DNA from: Rhizodiscina lignyota
Taxonomy: Eukaryota
NCBI GenBank assembly: GCA_010015805.1
Contig: ML978122.1
Location: 2,638,453-2,702,452, forward strand
DNA: 64,000 nucleotides
Reading direction: 5' to 3'
In this document: piece by piece, positions 31,840-41,520 of the stretch
Layout of the letters: every line of letters starts with the position of its first letter
Position numbering within the stretch: position 1 is the first letter of the stretch
Position numbers and translations under genes: made by a program
The notes under the pieces: generated by a model
The model's database searches: none
Seen by the model: the letters and a program-made list of their open reading frames with translations, nothing else
What the model was told of the DNA's origin: nothing

Positions 31840-34800
31840 TCAATCAAGAAGCGACCGAAGATGATGCAGGCGACTGATTGTTAGATCCCTCTCCGATGCT
31901 TTGCCCTTAGAAAACAGGATCTCAGCCAATGACTTCTTCCGGTCCTGTACCTTCACGACGTGTTCCTCGTACGAATCTTTGATGACATAGCGTACGGTGG
32001 TGACTTCCCTCGTTTGGCCAATACGATGTATCCGTGCGAGCGCCTGTTCTTCCATTGTCGGATTCCAGTGCGGTTCGAAAAGGAAAGCTCGAGATGCGGC
32101 CGTGAGAGTCAAACCGACAGCACCGCAGGACATCGAGAGCAGTAATACCTTGATTTCCGGTTCCTCTCTCAATCTTTTTAGTGCAGTTGCTCTGTTTTTT
32201 GGAGTAACTTTGCCGTCGAGACGGACGGATTGGATACCCGCACTCTGGAGCGCGGGCTGAACGATATCGAGCGTCGAAGTCCAGCTAGAAAGCACAATAG
32301 CCTTCTCCTCTCCGAGGGAACTGAGATCTGATATCAAAGCATTCACTTTAGTAGGCCAAGAAGCTAAGGATAGAGGGCCCTCAGGAGCGGGGCTCCGCGG
32401 ACTCGGTGAGGTCGTTGATGATAGCTCAACAGCCGGGCACGAAGGATAATGCGTACAAGATATTGATCCATGCTCATCCCGTGATGAGGCGACACATTTA
32501 CCACATAATAAAAAAAGACATTGGCTGAGCCAAGGCCTTTTATATGCGTCTGTAGAGTACAAGTGACCCTCTCCTTCGAGATCTCCGATCTCGTCCCAGC
32601 ATCCAGAGCAATTGATTCCTCCAACAGTTAGCATGATATTAAAGGCATCAACAGCTGAATGTTGACACCATTCGGAAACCTTTGATGACCCAGATATAGA
32701 GCATGGCACTTCAGCTACAGGGGCCATGGAAGCAATTCCGAGGTTGCATATCTTCCGAAGAGCGTTGACTCGTTGTAGCACGTTTACGTACGACGGCCGT
32801 CCATGCGTTTCGTCCTGCAGTTGTTCATCAATAGCTTGAATGGCTTGAGCTCTTGCCGAGTCGTAGTGGATCCTTTCCTCATGTGTAAAATGGAGATATT
32901 CTATCCTATCGTGTCGTGCTGGTAATTGGATGGCACTTCCACTGCGACGAAGCATAACGTAGCTGAGAAGCTTTTTAAGCCTGTCAATAGCGACATCTTC
33001 GGCTGCATCTTTCCACTTCTGGACAATGTCAGAGTCGAAAGTTATACGATCGGCGTACGGATAAATTCGAAGAAACCGCAATAAACTGGCAAGGTCGGAA
33101 AGCTTATTCTGTATAGGCGTTCCAGTGACTGCCCATCGTGAACGTGCCTTTAAGGCACACGCAGCTCGAGATGTGGCGGTAGTTGAGTTTCGAATGCAAT
33201 GTGCTATCCAACATTCAATATCGTACGGTGTAAGAGCCGGGGTTATATACCTTCATCGAGGATTATTCGATGCCACTCGACGGAGAAGAGTATGCTCTTC
33301 GCGTTCGAAGGTCGTCTCCATTCTGATGCAATGGTCTCAAATGTTGATATGACCAGGTGACATTCGCTGATGTCGTCTATCGTTTTGACGCGAGATTTGC
33401 TGTGATGCCGTCGCAATATGAGAGACCGTGGTTGCAGATGTCTTCCTTTGATCAGTCGCCAGAAATACCACGAGAGGACTATACGCACTCGGCAATTTGA
33501 GCCTCCCATGAGCCCAGGACTAATTCAGTTGTCAGATGCTTGATGAGATATGCCGCGGTTCTACGAATGGTGTGGAACTTACGAGCCGAAGGAACGACGA
33601 GAAGTGTAGCTGAGACTTGTCGTTCATCTGTTACAGCATTATCTGAGGATAATTTGAAGTGCTGCTCGAGGTCCGATGCCATCAAGGCTATCATGCTCAA
33701 GGATTTGCCCAACCCCATATGATCAGAAACAATACCCCCAGAGAACGGTGGGGGAGCTTCGTGTCGTAAAATGCCGCTCACGTTGTTTATATATCTGCCG
33801 CACGTCAAATTGTGACCAAAAAAAATGAAACAATAATTATTAGCTCGGTAAATGTAAGAAAGGAAGTATCTCAAAATAGAGGTAACGCTTACTGGATAGA
33901 CCCTGAGCAAGACTTTCTCAGACTCCATAAATCCTGTCCTGGTAATTGAAACTTCCACCCCTTCTCTCTGTCCACCATGAATGTCAGGGCCTGTCGTTGA
34001 TGTCTAGGTAGAAGTTAGTGATAATCGCTCGCGATTGCAAATGCGAACACACTTGAGTAAAACTGTCTTCACCGCCACTGGCTGTTTTGCTTCACAGAGT
34101 TCCTTTCCAAATTCGAACCCATCGAGAAAGTCGAGAGGGGCTGATGTACATGTCGTCGGTTGTGAGTATTCATTTGGCTCGATTGAGGTCATGACAACAT
34201 CTCCCTCTAACGACGATAGCCGGTGTGGATTTGCGTAACGAATGATACGATCTGGGGAAATTGGGTCTTGGAGGTACAGCTCGTTGCGTTCAAACAGCTG
34301 TCCAATCGCTTCTGACAGCCTGGATGCGCCGTAGATTATGGCGTTCAGAGTCGGTGTGTAGCCGCAATGCTTCGTTGCTTTTGACAAGGGCTGAGCTCCG
34401 GTAATGCTCAGTCGAACACAGGTCTGCAGTTGTACAGAAGGGTTCATCAAAAGGGGGTGTAAAATAGTGAGATACCTCCTTTCCAGACATGCCAAGACGC
34501 AATTGTCCATTGTTGACAGTAATTGCCCAAATTCATTGAGTATGACATCCACTTTCCCGGCTGTGAGACTAGGGGCAACTTCGCCCACGTTCAAATTTTT
34601 GATCTTTTGATGTTAGCAAAGCTAATAGTTCCCTTGAATATCAGCGCATACCATTCCAAAGCAAACCCATTCATCTGAGGGAGACGTTGATTCATTAGGG
34701 CAACTTTGTGTGTAGTTCTGGCCGTTGCTACTTTCAGGCTCTTCCGGGTAAGGCTTATTGAGATTAGATGGTGTCGAGTAGCTCGATCCCACACCTGAAT

Positions 34801-34921
34801 TCGCATAAATATGACTTGTAGTGGGTGACGAACTCAAGGCCGTAGAGTTTATCGTGTACGTCTCGAGTCGGGGACGCTTTCGGGGGCGGTTGATTTCGTT
34901 TGAAGCCAAAATTTGGGACAT
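31840..34921 (-). CDS. SNF2-family ATPase/helicase (Rad5/Rad16-like, degenerate RING insert), multi-exon, apparently intact
   Basis: NLS-like RPRKRPR; WVCFGM; HQRQALTFM; motif I GGIVSDHMGLGKS; motif II RIILDE/AH across an intron; RWAVTGTPIQN; Cys cluster CSGC..CLFLLCGKC..C....C; EPHWNP..EEQALARIHRIGQ. Confidence 0.9.
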
Positions 34922-35391
34922 ATTGATCAATGTTTCAGTCTCATGAGGAGCATCTCGTGGTCCTAATGGGGCAAAGGAGCATGTTCAGATGTGAAATTTC
35001 ATGTACAGCGGCAGTGGGTTCTGGCCTCTCCTTGTGGTGAAGGAAAGAGGAGTTTCTTCGAAACAGGCGGTCAAGCTCCCCCATAACGCCAATGGATATG
35101 GCACCTCGCATTTGCTGCGCCTCACTGATTAAAGCCCCAAATCAGGCAACGAGGCGTAACTTGCGTGGGGCCGTCGTCCAGCGAGGCGAGGCTGCAGCAA
35201 GCTGAGGGAAGGTGAGCCTCTCCATGTCAACTTCTCGTAAAACACCATCTCTATTCAAGTTAATCCAGTCCACACATATATAGGTGAATATTATTCGCAA
35301 AAATTAGCAGTTAAGTTGTTGTAGTGAGGGTTCGTTACGATATGATATCGTAGGAAGAGGAAGGACGGAATCCTCACGAAAGGCTAGCGCG

Positions 35392-38300
35392 ATGTCTTCT
35401 CTCCACGTCCTAACTCAGCCCGAAAGTCCTGCTCGTCACCTACGCGCCGTTCCGTCTCAACAAGCGCGTCTATCCATAAAGGAGGCGTTCGATCGCCTCC
35501 AGAAGTCGGTCACAAAAGAAGATGAGAGGGAATTCTTCTCTACGGAGCTCGAAGATGTCTTCGCTACCGCACGCGATGTCGAGCGACAGCTTGCCGCTCG
35601 AGGAGAGCTTCGCAACATGCGACGTATTCAGCCATTCTTCGACTGGTTACTACAGTACTCGAAAGAAATGGAGATTCTCTGCAATGGGACACCATATCTC
35701 CCTTGGGTTTGGGTATGCTTTTGCTTCAAAGTACCGCTCAAAATTTATTGCTTCGCCGACTAATGCTGCTTTGCAGGCTCCGATAAGACTCATATTGCAC
35801 TTGGCCTCAGACTTCACCAATGCAATTGAAAAGCTCATCAAAGCTTACGGTCAGATAGCTGATTGTCTTCCTCGACTCGACCGTTTGAAAGCGACATTTA
35901 GCGCCAACCAAGATTTCCAACAGGTCCTAGCGGCAGTATATGCTGATATACTATTGTTCCACGAGCGTGCATACAAATTTGTTCGAAGGAAGGGTATGAT
36001 ATTTATCGGAGCTACATATGACCAGAAGGCTAACATGCGATGCATAGGGTGGAAGTTATTCTTCTGTTCCTCGTGGACGGTATTTCAAAGCCATTTCCAG
36101 ACCATATTGGACAGTATCGCAAGACATGCGGATCTCATTGACAGAGAAGCAATGGCCCTTCATATTTCAGAAGCACGACTATGGAGACAATCTGCAATGG
36201 ATAGAGCACTTCGATTGGAGCAGGAAAATCTCATTGCTCATTCGCAAGCAGTAATGTCGTGGCTCAAAACTAGTGACGTTCTTCAGCAAGATGAACTCGA
36301 TAATCAATTTGAAAAAGGCTCCCCTGGTACTTGCGAATGGGTCATACGCCACTCTCAGATGAAAAAGTGGATTCAACCTTCGCAAGAGACGGAGATATTA
36401 TGGCTAAAAGGAAAGCCCGGGTCAGGTACGTAGCGCAGACGAAGATTTGTTCCTCATGGCTGAGTGTTCTCTAGGTAAAACCGTACTTTGCGCCAATACA
36501 ATACGATTTCTCAAAATAGGTGGCTCAGCTACAGTCATCTATTATTTTTGCAACAATTATCGGATGGGATATCTGAACGGCCTTGCCTCTGTTCTCCAGT
36601 CGCTCTGCTCACAGCTGCTTGAAGCGGAGAAAGCGTTATACTCAATCGCCTATGAGCAATATATCAGCAAAGAGAAGTCTTCCTCGATTCAGAATCTGTC
36701 TCTCCTCCTCCACACATTGATATCGACTTTCGATAATGTCCGCATCATCATTGATGGTCTCGACGAATGGGATTCGAGTCACGCGCAAAGGATGGTAAAG
36801 GAGTTGAGGTTGATCATCTCAAAGAAAGAAAAGAACACCTTCCACAAGCTTCTCATTTCGAGTAGGGAGTTGCCGCATCTTAACCGCACATTTGCTATGA
36901 AGCCAGTAATCTCATTGAGCGATGAGAGGGAAGCCATCGACAGTGCCATTCGAAGCTTTGCGGATTCAAGTGTCTCCGAGATATTTAAGACTCTTAAGGA
37001 TGATTCGAATACCGCTCTTGACGATCGCGTCCAACATGATATTCAAAGTGACTTAGTTCGAAAGGCTGACGGTACTCTGATTTAATCTCCCTGTGTTTTG
37101 AATGTGCGTGAGCTGACACTACCCTCAATAGGCATGTTCCTTTGGGTACGTCTGGTCCTAGGCATCCTTGAGCGCGCAGACAGCCTTCACTCGCTGAAGC
37201 TCGCTGTAGCATCATTCCCCAGGGAACTGGGAGACGTGTACGGCCGTATTCTCGAGGATATGAGATCTTGTCTTGCCCCTGCTGAATATGAAAAAGCCCT
37301 CCGTGTGCTAGCCTGGATCACGTTTGCGAAACGGCCCCTCAGGACTTACGAGCTTCAGCATGGAGTCACTCTGCACGCAGGTAATACACGGTTCGACCAT
37401 GAAACGAGGCCGTTACGGAATGTCTACGACATCTGCAGGCCTCTTATCGAAAATGGTCCGCATCAGACTGTCGTACTCATACATTCTTCTGTCAAAGAGT
37501 AATTACTTCGGTTCGTATAATATTTCATTGTTGAACCTGCTGACAAAGGCAAGGTTCCTTCTCGAAGTGATGAACCCACCCGTACTCAATGCAATAACCG
37601 CTCAAGGTCTTATTTTGTTCTCCTGCACGGTGTACCTGGTGAAGGGTTATGATCTAGTCGACCCCGCTGTTCCCGACCTCATCCACATGCAAAACCTGAC
37701 GGAACGCTTCCACTCACTACATCACTACTGTCGTGCATTTTGGCATGAACACTTATTCGACTACGCAACCCTAACTCCAGATCTTGTCCAGGACAGGTCG
37801 TCTACTTTGGCTTTGCAGCTGAGGTTGCTCTGTGACGTGCATCGGAGAGTCTCTGAGGCCCAACCGTTCTTGGAACAGTTGTCAGATCGTAGTTTGACAA
37901 ACGATAAATTAGAGCAGAAATTGGCTCTCCTCGCCGACATGCACTATCTCCATCGCATTGTTCGAGAGGTGTTGATATCCCGAGAAAGGTCAAACGAGCA
38001 GCGGTTATCAGTTCAAGGTATACTATTAGCTCATGTTATCTATTCATTCAATGATCTTACTACATTTACAGGCGCCAACCCTGCCGAGGATTTGTCATTG
38101 TATAATCGGATGCATTTGAAATACGAGGACGTCGCTCATAATCTTCTTCGAGCCGATCTGGTAGATGGTCTCAGTCCTGAATCTTTGAAAGTTTTTAAGG
38201 ATTGCTTTGCACCGTCTGCATTTGTCTGCAGCTACTCCGGATGTAACAATGCAAGCATGGGTTTTGGTTCTCAGCAAGAACTCTCAAAGCACGAGATAGT

Positions 38301-38765
38301 CCACGGGCCACGATTCCGGTGTCAGAACGTCTCTTGCGATTATTCTGTGATTGGATTCAGCACTGCGCACGCATTGAAACAACACAACAGGAAATACCAT
38401 GCTCCTCAGGATAAGATTTTCGTTCCAGAAAGTCTTCGTCAACACGGTAAACCGCCGGCAGCTTCTTCGTTTCTTCAATTTGATCAGCTGACGGGGTTGT
38501 GTTAGACGAATTCGTCGAATCAACAAATGCACAGCAATCTGCTCCTGCTGCTGCTGCGCCACCAACAGCACGCTACACCGTCAGATATTTTACCCATGCC
38601 CTGGCGAAGAGATCCGCTAATCTATCACAGACCTTCGCCAACTCAGATCTCGCGATCTTCGACGCCCTCAAGAACTTCGATTTCGACTCGTTCCTCCACA
38701 CGGACGACCCGAGCGGCGCGTTTACCTTCGACAATATGAATTTCAATGTGTTCCCTAAGCGGTGA
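35392..38765 (+). CDS. NACHT (STAND/NLR-like) protein: N-terminal helical domain, NACHT, winged helix, two C2H2 fingers and an acidic tail
   Basis: ILCNGTPYLPWVWAPI N-domain; GTCEW; Walker A GKPGSG/KT across an intron; Walker B IIIDGLDE; LLISSRE; KADG/MFLWVRL; RPLR..EL; IHSSVKE; CSYSGC..H...H and CQNVSC..H...YH; intron 38447-38505 adds the last coding part with NFDFDSFLH. Confidence 0.88.
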
Positions 38766-39117
38766 TGAGGCTGTTTGATCTTTCAGCGTCTCGACTAAAC
38801 CCAGAGTCGGAATCAATATGGAGATGGCGCTCTCAAGCGTTCTTCAAATCTCTCAGAGTTATTCATATAACCGTGCACGCGTATTTCATGGCTCGTACGA
38901 TTGGTCTGCTTTTGATAGGTACATTATGCAGCTGTGTAGAGTTTGTGCAAAGTAATATGTACATAGAATGAATTTTTTTACCATCAAGGCCCATTTATTT
39001 TCAATCACGTCCGTCTAGACTCTGGAGAAAGAAAGTATCCTGAGAGCACTGCCACCAAGCCGGCAAGAACAGCTGAAGCTCAAACATCGAAGTTATACTG
39101 CTCATTGGGAAGGCAAC

Positions 39118-40207
39118 CTACAGCTGTCCACGAGGGATGCGGCGGTGGCAACTGGAAAACTCTTGTCAGCATTCGCGATAAAGCTAGTGGTAATCTCCAA
39201 CAATGGGGTAGTTGAGATGGAAGAGACGTACGTTGAGGGCTCTGCTCCATGCTTGCTTGAGCCTTCCTCGGCCTTGGCCGGTGGAGTGTAGTGATGGTGT
39301 TCGTGATGGACTGGAGTTCCCTTGTGGGTCGTGACCGCACTCGAAGAGGAAGAGGGGGTCGCGGAGTGTACTGGGGTGCTGGACGGCTTAGTCTCGACCG
39401 CCTCAGCGGATGTGCTCGGCTTAGTAGAGTGGGTTGGTTTGGCAGACGTAGACGGCTTGACAGACTTGACCGGCTTAACAGAGGTGGTCGGTTTGGCAGA
39501 TGTGGTCAGTTTTGCAGATGTAGTTGGCTTGGCAGAGGTGGTTGGCTTGGCGGAGGTAGTTGGTGCAGCTGAAGTTGATGGCGCTGCTGAACTGGATTGG
39601 GCTGCTACGCTGGGCTCGGTGCCAACGTCTGATCCGGACCACTCGCTGCAGTCCACTTCTGTAGCATTTCCCACAGCAGCCTCAGTTCCAGCGCCATCGA
39701 AGAGGCTGTTTGCACCGGAGTTCAAGCAGAGGTCAAAGTTCACGTTTGCGCCCCACGAATTGGTATCTTCCAGCGTCTGCTGCGAGCAAGGCGGGTTGCC
39801 ATCGACTAAGGAACGCATCGAGAGTCAGCTTCTTTGCCTTCTAATTATTATTCAGCGTCTTGATATTTTAACTTACTGGGACACAAGTTGTTGGCCTTCA
39901 CAACGATGGACTTGCCGGCAGTCGGAACCTGGTTGCCAGAGGTATCCGTCTCAATTGTGAGCTTGTAGCATCTACCGCAAGCTGGACCAGCGCCGGCACC
40001 CGGGCCAACACCGAAGAGGTTCTGCGAGACGGCAGCAGCATAGCCATTGGTGTAGAAGCCACATGCTACAGTGGCGGAGTTACAGTTTCCAGAACCATCC
40101 TGGTCTCCAGAGCCATATTCGGTGAACGATGCCTTGTAGGTCTGGGCCTGGGCGGCAAGGAGGAGGCAAGACTGCACAAGTGCAGAACGAACAGAAAGTT
40201 TGAACAT
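39118..40207 (-). CDS. Secreted GH45 subfamily C (PcCel45A/expansin-like DPBB) endoglucanase with a Ser/Thr/Pro/Lys-rich tail
   Basis: Signal peptide; ASFTEY, ACG, YAAAVSQ..FG.GPG.GAGPACGRCY.L, IVVKANNLCP, GN..C, NFDLC, EVDCSEWSG; internal intron at about 39.81-39.87 kb; a likely 3' intron gives a stop at 39118 (unspliced stop at 39102). Confidence 0.8.
39400..39580 (-). repeat. 18-bp coding tandem repeat (K/A-P-T/S-T-S-A) in the GH45 tail
   Basis: APSTSA APTTSA KPTTSA KPTTSA KLTTSA KPTTSV KPVKSV KPSTSA KPTHST KPSTSA in the translation. Confidence 0.85.
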
Positions 40208-41520
40208 CTTGTCGTCAAGACTAAGGATCGAACTGAGCTATGCAGTTGATGCTAACAGGTAACGAGTGACAGAGAAAATAGCCTAAAGGCTCAAAAAAAA
40301 GAGAGACTGAAAGGAAGGTAAAGACCGACGTGGGGTTGGAATCACACTATGAGCGTAAAGAAAGAAGGAAAAGAAGAGGTAGGAGGAAGACATGTTTTAT
40401 GTAAAACTGCTTAGCCAGATCCGAAATGAAGCATCTCGCTTGGTGTCGATGAGGGGGAGCTGTGGTTAGCTCGCATGTCACATCGGTCAGGGCCGATGCG
40501 GTTGAGTAACGGTGTGACAATTTAGTAAAATGAGATCCGCCTGAACCCTACAGCGGCTGCGCGGTTACGTGGATGAGTATCGGCTGAAGTGTAAACAAGC
40601 TTTTCAATTCAAGAGTGATCAACGAGATCCCACTAGATATCTGCATTGTAGCAGCTTGACTACCCTGCCGGCTTGATACAGTGAAGATCGTGTGTCTGCT
40701 CTGAGAACCTGAAAGTTGGAGAGTCAAAGGCCGGGCTTTTGACGGAAGTGAAGGTGGCAAGGGTGGAGGTGGCGGACGGAGCGTCGACGGGATGTCGAAA
40801 CCGGAGAATTTCTACGAATCACATCACGACGGGTGGGATATTAAGCTCACCTCCTGGCACAACCGCCGCACAGTTCGTTCAGCTGAAATCTATTTTCTGT
40901 CGACGATGTTTGTGGTGACTTGCTGTTCATATCCTCAACGATTGATGCTAGAGCTGAAGTTCCAAGTGCTCGTTGTGTCGTATTTCTCTTTTGGTCCTCG
41001 TTAGGTACTCTAACTGGTCTATCTAAGAACTTCCACTACAAAAGCCGCGACAGCTGCAGGGGAAAGCAAGACATGTCACAGACTTCGGTCCTTTCGGTCA
41101 TGTCATGGTGTGATTTCCTCCGCCCGTGACTCGGAACGGAAGACGTTGCGGCGCCATCTCAATCTAAGAATATCAAATCGCCACTATCCATGCACGATCC
41201 GGACAACCCCTGATGATTTGACGCTATGTCCAGCCTTTTGGATGCACTCCTCGAGCCTTGAGACTTGGCGACTCGATCTATGCGAAGTATGGAGTATTGC
41301 CGTGCAATAATGGCAGCATCGTAGGCACTCTCGAGCTGACAAAATGTTTCTCGCCTAAGCATACAGAAACGCCCCCAGGTAGAGCAGCTCTGATACTTCA
41401 AGGTATGATAAGTGAAACTATCTCCGAAAGCTCAGTTGTACGATCTTCGGAGTATTCTAAATAATAGCGAACTACTAAAACACTTGTACATAAGAGTTGA
41501 TCTATCCACTGCCATGGTAC

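Follow-up and report, generated by a model that had tools for sequence, protein, structure and literature searches.

Fusions between NLR-type proteins and pieces of host regulators are known from plants, where NLRs with integrated decoys, such as RRS1-WRKY, carry a piece of a host regulator fused to the receptor. In vertebrates, the NACHT proteins CIITA and NLRC5 bear an acidic activation domain, and in bacteria the STAND class includes the regulators MalT and AfsR. Fungal NLR-like proteins are many, and to our knowledge almost none of them has a known input or output. A survey of Sordariales NLRs (PMC12258605) records, in its accessible parts, zinc fingers in 57 of these proteins, 34 of them of the C2H2 type and 52 at the C-terminus, presents C-terminal C2H2 fingers as the commonest non-canonical domain, and cites the integrated-decoy concept. 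The combination of a NACHT scaffold with fingers, pointed out in an earlier note on the DNA described here, is by that account already published. The other point of comparison is the Som1/SomA/Flo8 family of LUFS-LisH regulators in the cAMP-PKA pathway. The available portions of two papers on this family (PMC3228794, PMC4631450) describe no function for the Som1 C-terminus, and neither these nor the available portion of a third (PMC10718430) mention a C-terminal motif. In yeast Flo8, according to the accessible text of PMC10716077, residues 726-799 (the C-terminal 74) serve as an activation domain, and in vitro they bind Bdf1 and Toa1. The capture of a Som1 tail by a NACHT gene, which is the subject here, was not found in the literature searched and seems new; the motif string FDFDSFL gave no literature match, and Som1 together with NACHT gave no relevant one.

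The gene lies on the forward strand of the window, by which is meant the whole 64,000-nt stretch of Rhizodiscina lignyota DNA that was analysed. Its nine exons (Table 1), once joined, translate letter for letter to the public 975-residue R. lignyota protein NA57DRAFT_72345 (P0003 below; 976 codons with the stop, a TGA at 38763-38765), and all eight introns run from GT to AG and measure 49-64 nt. The protein reads, in order, as a DUF7708 domain, a NACHT domain, a putative winged helix, a helical region, two atypical TFIIIA-like C2H2 fingers and a 44-residue tail. Pfam recognises the N-terminal DUF7708 (E 1e-14, 55 bits against a cutoff of 25), and the nucleotide-binding region is matched both by NPHP3_N (E 4.8e-33, 115.1 bits against 24.8) and by NACHT itself (E 1.1e-7, 32.3 bits against 26.7), which places the protein among the STAND/NACHT NTPases; GPIID_WHD stays under its cutoff (23.9 bits against 27, E 5.7e-5). 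By eye, the Walker A sequence GKPGSGKT and the Walker B sequence IIIDGLDEW fit the patterns GxxxxGK[ST] and hhhhD[GD]xDE. Repeats of the ANK, WD40 or TPR kind, reported missing in the earlier note, are absent from the 13 Pfam rows at E <= 10 for P0003. The other sequence features that it listed are all found where it placed them, among them the tandem CSYSGC-H-H and CQNVSC-H-H fingers, an intron that joins the terminal part in frame, and a further in-frame intron of 51 nt. Its expectation that an ORF caller would split off the last exon did not hold, as the deposited NA57DRAFT_72345 already includes the tail exon. A word-based search with residues 600-975 matched the query alone among 7,999 scored candidates. 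Judged by its sequence, P0003 is a fungal STAND/NACHT protein whose C-terminal module, a finger pair, stands in place of ANK, WD40 or TPR repeats.

Table 1. Features of the NACHT gene and of its captured 3' end (positions are those of the window).
Feature	Position	Strand	Basis or remark
NACHT gene coding region	35392..38765	+	exact translation to P0003; Pfam domains
NACHT gene exons 1-5	35392-35712, 35777-35993, 36048-36425, 36475-37071, 37132-37498	+	
NACHT gene exons 6-9	37554-38017, 38072-38446, 38506-38579, 38631-38765	+	
Walker A loop GKPGSG/KT, split by intron 36426-36474	36410..36483	+	sequence and P0003
C2H2-like finger 1, CSYSGC...H...H, C-x4-C-x15-H-x3-H	38227..38304	+	sequence, relatives, PDB phmmer
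C2H2-like finger 2, CQNVSC...H....H, C-x4-C-x15-H-x4-H	38320..38400	+	sequence, relatives, AF2 model
Intron 7, 59 nt, GTAAAC...GCTGAC...TTAG	38447..38505	+	sequence; spliced in public model
Adaptor exon, 74 nt, encoding (D)EFVESTNAQQSAPAAAAPPTARYT	38506..38579	+	phase-1 donor to phase-0 tail exon
Intron 8, 51 nt, in frame, stop-free	38580..38630	+	homologous to last intron of Som1 gene
Som1-derived part of last exon, TFANSDLAIFDALKNFDFDSFLHTDDPSGAFTFDNMNF	38631..38744	+	X1 contigs of other locus; protein match to P0004
38-nt stretch identical in both loci, spanning NFDFDSFL (38673-38696)	38671..38708	+	double-depth contig
Non-homologous end NVFPKR and stop, in place of second Som1 block (DGVEAG...)	38745..38765	+	contig comparison

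In both fingers the gap between the second cysteine and the first histidine is x15, as against the C-x2-4-C-x12-H-x3-5-H spacing of the Pfam zf-C2H2 model (PF00096), which scores 9.6 bits on P0003 with a cutoff of 25.2. Across six aligned relatives the histidines of finger 1 are invariant and its cysteines are kept in five, while C41, C46, H62 and H67 of finger 2 are invariant in all six. The best phmmer match in the PDB is TFIIIA (1tf3, E 0.0013). An AF2 model built with the relatives' alignment reaches a pLDDT of 73.5, with helices over both His pairs (the finger region from the single sequence gives 36). When that model is run through Foldseek nothing falls at E <= 0.001 (best E 0.1), and all 48 listed rows (ranks 1-50, E 0.1-1.2) are tandem C2H2 domains, nearly all of them DNA-bound. 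Residues 640-975 have their Atlas look-alikes in Ascomycota zf-C2H2 clusters and in two NACHT clusters, and in one finger gene, L001, a basic run and then an HMG box come after a related finger pair. The finger pair of P0003 is a putative zinc- and DNA-binding module.

Downstream of the fingers, intron 7 has its donor GTAAAC from 38447, a branch sequence GCTGAC at 38487-38492 and an acceptor TTAG ending at 38505; were it kept in the transcript, the frame would stop at the TAG of 38503-38505 and the protein would lack the tail. The adaptor exon that follows is of the only length class that preserves the reading frame. Since the joined exons translate exactly to P0003, both terminal introns are already within the deposited model, and it is on that model that both are taken to be spliced in vivo. 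Homology between the adaptor exon and the upstream sequence of Som1 was considered and dropped, because shuffled sequences score at least as high in 238 of 2000 and in 118 of 2000 cases, which is not significant.

The tail beyond it has a counterpart in the same genome. Against a library of 5.8 billion sequences, an 85-residue tail query finds a same-species, 706-residue LisH protein (P0004) at E 2.1e-8 and 78% identity (32 of 41 residues), and a tblastn search of the window with the Som1 C-terminus hits 38538-38744 at E 9e-16, with no comparable match at any other place in it. All seven Som1 orthologues compared (P0005-P0011) end in the C-terminal motif, so that the alignment with Som1/SomA proposed in the earlier note stands, and on these scores the resemblance of the two predicted protein ends is far beyond chance. 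The likeness extends to the DNA. The Som1 locus (NA57DRAFT_74459) is represented here by contigs of run X1 aligned to the window; these are of unstated kind, behave as DNA and may be source data of the assembly, in which case they are not independent of it. They reveal a second genomic locus that shares the DNA of 38616-38744, with about 90% of the 114 exon bases in common between the NACHT tail exon and the Som1 3' end. Two contigs of this other locus show 7 and 4 differences from the tail exon. In one of them 9 nt are inserted, which encode the DSG of Som1; the other continues into codons for GAPDGVEAGG, the end of P0004. Within intron 8, bases 38616-38630 are aligned, by inference without a difference, to the contig of the Som1 locus, 21 of the 30 bases before 38616 match the Som1 locus, the single best match among 127,940 30-mers of the window, and 36 of the last 45 bases match overall. 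The stretch identical in both loci forms a separate 38-nt contig with a depth of 301, against 141-161 for the contigs that flank it. In the core (38671-38744) one replacement is set against about three silent differences, an inferred count in small numbers. The tail is thus copied, at the level of DNA, from the 3' end of the Som1/Flo8 gene in this genome, and the grafting of a motif onto an NLR scaffold that the earlier note had supposed is borne out in this form: intron 8 and the exon after it are a copy, now diverged, of the Som1 3' end.

P0003 has block 1 of the Som1 C-terminal motif (D-V-L-E-N-F-D-F-D-S-F-L ... F-x-F-D) and scores 54.5 bits in a tail profile of which it is itself one of the eight building sequences. 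Of 145 other tails, 98 have the second block (DGVEAG...), as against none of ten non-Som1 hosts, and P0003 is without it. Pfam has no LisH row for P0003 and BLASTP against Som1 bodies finds no match; on the predicted protein, P0003 is the recipient of one Som1 exon and not a member of the Som1 family. Pfam also has no model for the tail. The Sordariales survey, in its accessible parts, used domain annotations (PMC12258605), so a domain-based survey of that kind would miss it.

Three further records (P0072, P0067 and P0159), each a single predicted protein, combine the same finger pair, a linker of 35-45 residues and a Som1-like tail. One of them, P0067, is a finger-plus-tail protein of 188 residues with neither a NACHT nor a HET part, and P0072 has a weak HET match (E 0.011). 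The motif is also carried by an ankyrin-repeat protein (P0068) and by P0085, which has a weak match to the STAND-N-terminal-like PigL_N (E 0.11); the HET and PigL_N matches both lie below their Pfam cutoffs. The four finger-linked tails each have their own nearest neighbour among the Som1-type tails, and each comes closest to a different Som1 lineage. Monophyly of the four is rejected by an AU test (lnL difference 45.5, p-AU 3.6e-11) run on 30 tail rows, with 103 of 133 left out and the group named after the nearest-neighbour table had been seen. The recurrence of finger pair and tail in the predicted proteins of other fungi suggests selection for the combination, and would make the Som1 C-terminal motif a portable functional unit.

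How might such a protein work? The reading we favour, to which we give about an even chance, is that finger module and captured tail form an activating or Som1-mimicking output under the control of the NACHT domain. Downstream of the finger exon lies a fragment of the same genome's Som1/Flo8 gene, made up of most or all of the last Som1 intron and of the opening 114 nt of the terminal exon, and in the gene model the 59-nt intron and 74-nt adaptor exon connect it in frame. The predicted protein therefore closes with block 1 of the two conserved Som1 blocks (..L.NFDFDSFLHTDD.SGAFTFDNMNF). This tail may be the acidic/aromatic peptide by which Som1 meets co-activators or partners; its most likely role, by analogy, would be to bind co-activators or to activate, or else to mimic Som1. 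For activation, the Flo8 activation domain offers an analogy. Fingers and tail together would make a small nucleic-acid-binding, activating or Som1-mimicking output, which the NACHT domain could make available or withhold as it switches with its nucleotide or oligomerises. The earlier note reads the protein as a STAND-gated transcription factor, which in this light is a putative one. Weighing against the favoured reading are the weak donors of both terminal introns, the departures of the copy from the Som1 consensus just before the core, the missing second block, and the low scores of the fingers in Pfam and Foldseek.

A possible, if doubtful, alternative concerns the history of the gene: finger pair and Som1 tail may have been fused long ago, with each copy kept like its own Som1 by gene conversion and no repeated fresh captures. 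In four records the tail comes after the same type of finger, the second Som1 block is missing from every copy, and the short homology tract with its 38-nt identical core is typical of conversion tracts. However, L003, the one full-length NACHT homologue obtained and the nearest, has the fingers and lacks the tail, and a search of it and of the finger genes L001/L002 gives no tail match among 327 ORFs. The copies also end at differing points relative to Som1, and their linkers differ.

Could the tail be an input and not an output? If it were an integrated decoy, which we think unlikely, it would mimic the real Som1 C-terminus, a factor from an attacking mycovirus, mycoparasite or competitor would bind it and so trip the NACHT domain, and the fingers would be part of the sensor and not promoter-binding. 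The tail does duplicate a peptide that belongs to a host regulator, it occupies the C-terminal side of an NLR-like scaffold, where the sensor lies, and the motif occurs as well in proteins with a weak HET match, with ankyrin repeats or with a weak STAND-N-terminal-like match (P0072, P0068 and P0085). A mimic must track its model, and each copy is, as would be expected, like the Som1 of its own lineage. The accessible text of the Sordariales survey also proposes putative integrated decoys in fungal NLRs, for example a CHK-2 kinase (PMC12258605). Against this, one carrier (P0067) does without NACHT and HET parts altogether, the HET and PigL_N matches fall under their cutoffs, and beside its core the copy shows a reversed charge and a deletion, changes that a faithful mimic should avoid. 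Compared with the Som1 consensus, it has K just before the core where 0 of 145 other tails do (E, D, Q, G or N instead), A where 121 of 145 have V, and three residues missing. We also know of no Som1-targeting effector, which counts against the decoy. A wider form of the idea is improbable: that fungal NLR-, HET- and ankyrin-type genes repeatedly take the Som1/Flo8 terminal exon as bait that reports attack on Som1, a master regulator of morphogenesis, perhaps kept matched by conversion. If true, this would be the first fungal integrated decoy made from the linear motif of a transcription regulator, and lineage-by-lineage donor tracking would be visible in sequence.

It is likewise unlikely that the tail is a mere passenger, a dead piece of Som1 just 3' of a NACHT gene whose real end is the TAG at 38503-38505 (...LTGLC) and to which the tail is joined only by prediction. 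Both terminal donors are weak (GTAAAC and GTCAGA), without splicing the frame meets its stop exactly where intron 7 ends, two strongly conserved positions are changed and three residues deleted in the copy, and the homologue L003 does without a tail. Yet the 282-nt frame of 38484-38765 is open over 93 codons despite about 10% exon divergence, the adaptor exon has the right phase, the changes in the core are by the inferred count mostly silent, and finger pair and tail occur within one predicted protein in three other records. Chance resemblance or an assembly chimera is highly improbable, for although the motif is short and acidic and run X1 is possibly the assembly's own data, the E values are 2.1e-8 and 9e-16, the loci differ at 11 sites and a 9-nt indel with each at single-copy depth (141-161) and only the shared 38-mer doubled, and swapped flanks would leave a Som1 end unlike all seven orthologues.

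The favoured reading, a finger-and-tail output under NACHT control, would give a fungal NLR-like protein a C-terminal module that can be read, namely DNA-binding-type fingers and a peptide copied from a well-studied regulator. The capture is also a clean and datable case of exon shuffling in a fungus, in which donor intron, acceptor site and reading phase were all carried along.

Set beside known systems, P0003 shares with the Sordariales C2H2 NLRs, as they appear in the accessible parts of PMC12258605, a NACHT-type domain followed by fingers and not by ANK, WD40 or TPR repeats; it differs from them in coming from a Dothideomycete, in its N-terminal DUF7708 and in the added peptide copied from Som1. 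With Som1/SomA/Flo8, as far as the available text of PMC3228794 and PMC4631450 describes them, it has in common block 1, the last intron and the phase in which the terminal exon is read. Unlike Som1, it has no LisH/LUFS region, no Q/P-rich body and no second C-terminal block. As in RRS1-WRKY, a duplicated piece of a host regulator is fused at the sensor end of the NLR, and the integrated piece of P0003 does duplicate a host protein; the piece is a linear motif of roughly 40 residues and not a folded domain, and for P0003 we know of no pathogen effector, paired helper or immune phenotype. CIITA/NLRC5 and MalT/AfsR differ from P0003 in domain order, DNA-binding fold and lineage, with no homology beyond the NTPase, but they join a STAND NTPase to an activation or DNA-binding module and so put transcription under a nucleotide switch, which by analogy is the arrangement proposed for P0003.

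The NACHT gene comprises nine exons with borders derived from the raw sequence, and the translation of the joined exons is identical, letter for letter, to P0003, a public protein of 975 aa (hypothetical protein NA57DRAFT_72345, Rhizodiscina lignyota). The eight introns measure 49-64 nt, each with GT..AG borders. Both terminal introns are removed by splicing in the public model, so the Som1-like tail already lies within the deposited protein, without annotation; the earlier note's expectation that an ORF caller would split the terminal exon off does not hold for this record. Three of the eight introns (35994-36047, 38018-38071 and intron 8) have a multiple-of-three length and no in-frame stop, and their retention would add 18, 18 or 17 residues, respectively, leaving the protein unbroken. 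The stop of the unspliced finger frame, TAG at 38503-38505, is the final three bases of intron 7; the NACHT protein may once have ended in ...LTGLC, the new exons having been taken up immediately behind it. In P0003, Pfam recognizes DUF7708, NPHP3_N and NACHT (55, 115 and 32 bits, respectively) and, below threshold at 23.9 bits, a winged helix; as had been read from the sequence, it recognizes no ANK, WD40 or TPR repeats. The Walker A and Walker B motifs, GKPGSGKT and IIIDGLDEW, are both intact. The flanking genes encode an SNF2-family helicase (SNF2-rel_dom E 2e-27, Helicase_C E 1.1e-16) and an expansin-like protein (EXPB1_D1 E 8e-27, DPBB), whose Ser/Thr/Ala/Pro-rich region comes from an 18-nt tandem repeat of 8.1 copies.

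Features of the NACHT gene, its neighbours and related metagenomic loci
Feature	Position	Strand
NACHT gene, 9 exons	35392-38765	+
Finger 1, CSYSGC-x15-H-x3-H	38227-38304	+
Finger 2, CQNVSC-x15-H-x4-H	38320-38400	+
Intron 7	38447-38505	
Adaptor exon (74 nt)	38506-38579	
Intron 8 (51 nt)	38580-38630	
SNF2-family helicase gene, divergent upstream neighbour	31840-34984	-
Expansin-like gene, downstream neighbour	39102-40237	-
18-nt tandem repeat in expansin-like gene	39412-39557	
DUF7708-NACHT-finger homologue	L003:977-4963	
Related finger pair (also in L002)	L001:179-1029	

The tandem CSYSGC and CQNVSC fingers are present as the earlier note described them. In both, the loop from second Cys to first His exceeds that of classical C2H2 fingers by three residues, and the Pfam zf-C2H2 score is therefore only 9.6 bits. 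Support for real C2H2-type fingers nevertheless comes from several directions, by sequence and by model. Their best PDB sequence match is to the TFIIIA fingers (1tf3, E 0.0013), with the extra residues falling as loop insertions. The finger-2 ligands and finger-1 histidines are invariant among six aligned relatives, five of which keep the finger-1 cysteines. In an AF2 model built with that alignment (pLDDT 73.5), helices cover both His pairs, and Foldseek listed 48 rows for it (ranks 1-50), all tandem C2H2 domains and nearly all DNA-bound, the best at E 0.1 and none at 0.001. Atlas look-alikes of residues 640-975, which serve as leads only, are Ascomycota zf-C2H2 clusters and two NACHT clusters (971 and 895 aa).

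Where does the tail come from? A search with nothing but the 85-aa translation of 38508-38762 matched P0003 and one further protein, P0004 of R. lignyota, which has 706 aa and a LisH domain (E 2.1e-8, 78% identity). A search with the last 67 residues of P0004 yielded seven Som1/Flo8-type regulators from Dothideomycetes, which bear the name 'cAMP-dependent protein kinase pathway protein' or 'Adhesion defective protein 2', and all seven end in ...DVLENFDFD[ST]FLHT.D...F.FD...GVEA.... With a 61-position profile of these tails, 197 proteins out of 1.84 billion representatives reached E <= 0.001. The statement that a D.L.NFDFD.FL motif ends Som1/SomA regulators is therefore supported. P0003 is not itself a Som1 family member, as it has no LisH domain and no similarity to Som1 bodies.

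Contigs of the public sequencing run X1, aligned to the window at 80% likeness, reveal two loci at the NACHT stretch. The contig of the window's own locus matches exactly over 35200-38700, and a separate 38-nt contig (38671-38708) has a depth of 301 versus 141-161, i.e. double. At the other locus, an 11.8-kb contig covers 38616-38700, with 7 differences plus a 9-nt insertion, the codons for DSG of P0004's FDSGDVLENFDFD. A 59-kb contig covers 38679-38744, with 4 differences, and past this homology translates to GAPDGVEAGG, the end of P0004. This identifies the second locus as the Som1 gene. Its alignment begins 15 nt inside intron 8, and to judge from the listed differences none falls in those 15 nt (38616-38630). 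The 30 Som1-contig letters directly upstream match 38586-38615 at 21 of 30, the single best of all 127,940 30-mers in the window, against 3-12 matches at neighbouring offsets. These letters do not code for the residues before TFGNLDL in P0004, so Som1 has an intron there, of which intron 8 is a copy. In numerous short Som1 fragments from other fungi, the reading frame continues through a 'D-V-S...Q' stretch at the intron position, which suggests that this phase-0 intron is widespread. The homology stops sharply at 38744/38745, where NVFPKR-stop takes the place of the second conserved Som1 block, and no significant resemblance to Som1 is seen in the adaptor exon. The motif was thus grafted onto the NACHT protein, as had been claimed, by capture of a Som1 intron and exon at the DNA level. 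Exon divergence is about 10% (11/114 bases and one indel) and intron divergence about 20% over the 45 bases seen; the capture is not very recent. The core, 38671-38744, would hold 1 replacement versus about 3 silent differences, and 38631-38670 about 6 replacement-type and 1-2 silent differences plus the indel, counts that are approximate because three differences are not listed by position.

Among NACHT relatives, a word-based search with P0003 residues 600-975 returned the query itself only, and metagenomes scanned with the finger alignment yielded three loci. L003 holds a collinear homologue, to which tblastn spans P0003 24-914 at 30-64% identity; its last ORF runs about 280 residues beyond the fingers, Q-rich, with a possible third Cys/His cluster and no Som1 tail. 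In L001 and L002, a related finger pair (39% identical to P0003 788-905) precedes a KKRKKKK run and, after it, an HMG box (E 2.5e-11) coded in overlapping frames. These parts probably belong to a single intron-containing gene, so that the P0003 finger type would stand in a DNA-binding context. The tail profile matched none of the 327 ORFs of the three loci. The tail is thus absent from L003, the only NACHT homologue inspected, which fits the graft that the earlier note proposed.

A survey of the motif's host architectures covered 150 listed of the 197 profile matches. Among the matches listed, 113 are fragments of 43-137 aa, most with a Som1-like end; of the 37 with at least 150 aa, 21 are Som1-like outside the motif and 16 are not. 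Of these 16, P0087 and P0107 look spurious, with many weak stretches, and P0036 and P0102 look like mis-modelled Som1 ends. In another match, P0133 (856 aa), a Som1 mid-region piece, a Zn2Cys6 cluster, the Som1-like motif and a CBFB_NFYA domain occur together, the result of gene-model merging or else of further shuffling. At least 12 credible non-Som1 carriers stand among the matches listed, including proteins with ankyrin repeats (P0068) or DUF7730 (P0083), a classical C2H2 protein that carries the motif internally (P0076) and a 937-aa protein with an internal Som1 C-terminal-like stretch (P0085). P0072 (406 aa; weak HET match, E 0.011), P0067 (188 aa) and P0159 (a 198-aa fragment) show the finger pair as in P0003, a linker of 35-45 aa and the tail. 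BLASTP of P0003 845-962 against P0072 268-391 runs collinearly over finger, linker and tail (E 2e-15).

For each carrier tail, the nearest neighbour is a Som1-type tail, from a different lineage in each case, and never another carrier (identities: P0003-P0004 32/41, P0072-P0040 33/38, P0067-P0041 44/58, P0068-P0006 26/36, P0085-P0005 32/48, P0076-P0011 28/37, P0083-P0020 29/41). The best tree uniting the four finger-linked tails was rejected by an AU test (lnL difference 45.5, p 3.6e-11) that used 63 columns and 30 of 133 rows (103 left out), on a group chosen after the nearest-neighbour table had been seen and with many 'Som1-type' rows being fragments identified solely by their Som1-like ends. 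The second Som1 block is kept in 0/10 carriers versus 98/145 other rows.

The finger pair with a Som1 tail thus recurs, with lineage-specific similarity, and the recurrence calls for three or more captures, or else for an old fusion that gene conversion has kept similar. We lean slightly towards capture, because no tail is present in L001, L002 or L003 and the copies differ in where they end. By capture or conversion alike, the combination looks to be under selection. Lineage-specific similarity is equally compatible with an integrated decoy, in which the tail mimics the Som1 C-terminus, a reading that we consider unlikely. It is no more probable that the tail is a dead Som1 fragment 3' of the gene, joined only in the predicted model, a reading kept alive by a K where 0/145 other tails have one, an A where 121/145 have V and a 3-residue deletion in the copy. 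The most economical reading is that block 1, which contains NFDFDSFL, would be Som1's acidic/aromatic partner-binding or activation peptide and, with the fingers, would give the NACHT switch a transcription-factor-like output. The sole experimental anchor for tail function, set beside the motif by analogy, is the Flo8 C-terminus: passages of PMC10716077 describe reporter activation by the last 74 residues of yeast Flo8 and their in vitro binding of Bdf1 and Toa1.

A NACHT protein with C-terminal C2H2 fingers is an already published architecture. In the sections of a Sordariales NLR survey drawn on here, zinc fingers are the commonest non-canonical domain, with 57 zinc-finger NLRs, 34 of them C2H2 and 52 C-terminal (PMC12258605). 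A literature search found no published description of a Som1-derived tail on an NLR. That survey was based on domain annotations (PMC12258605); Pfam has no model for the tail motif, and a domain-based survey would therefore miss it. Beyond the published architecture, P0003 carries the Som1-derived tail.
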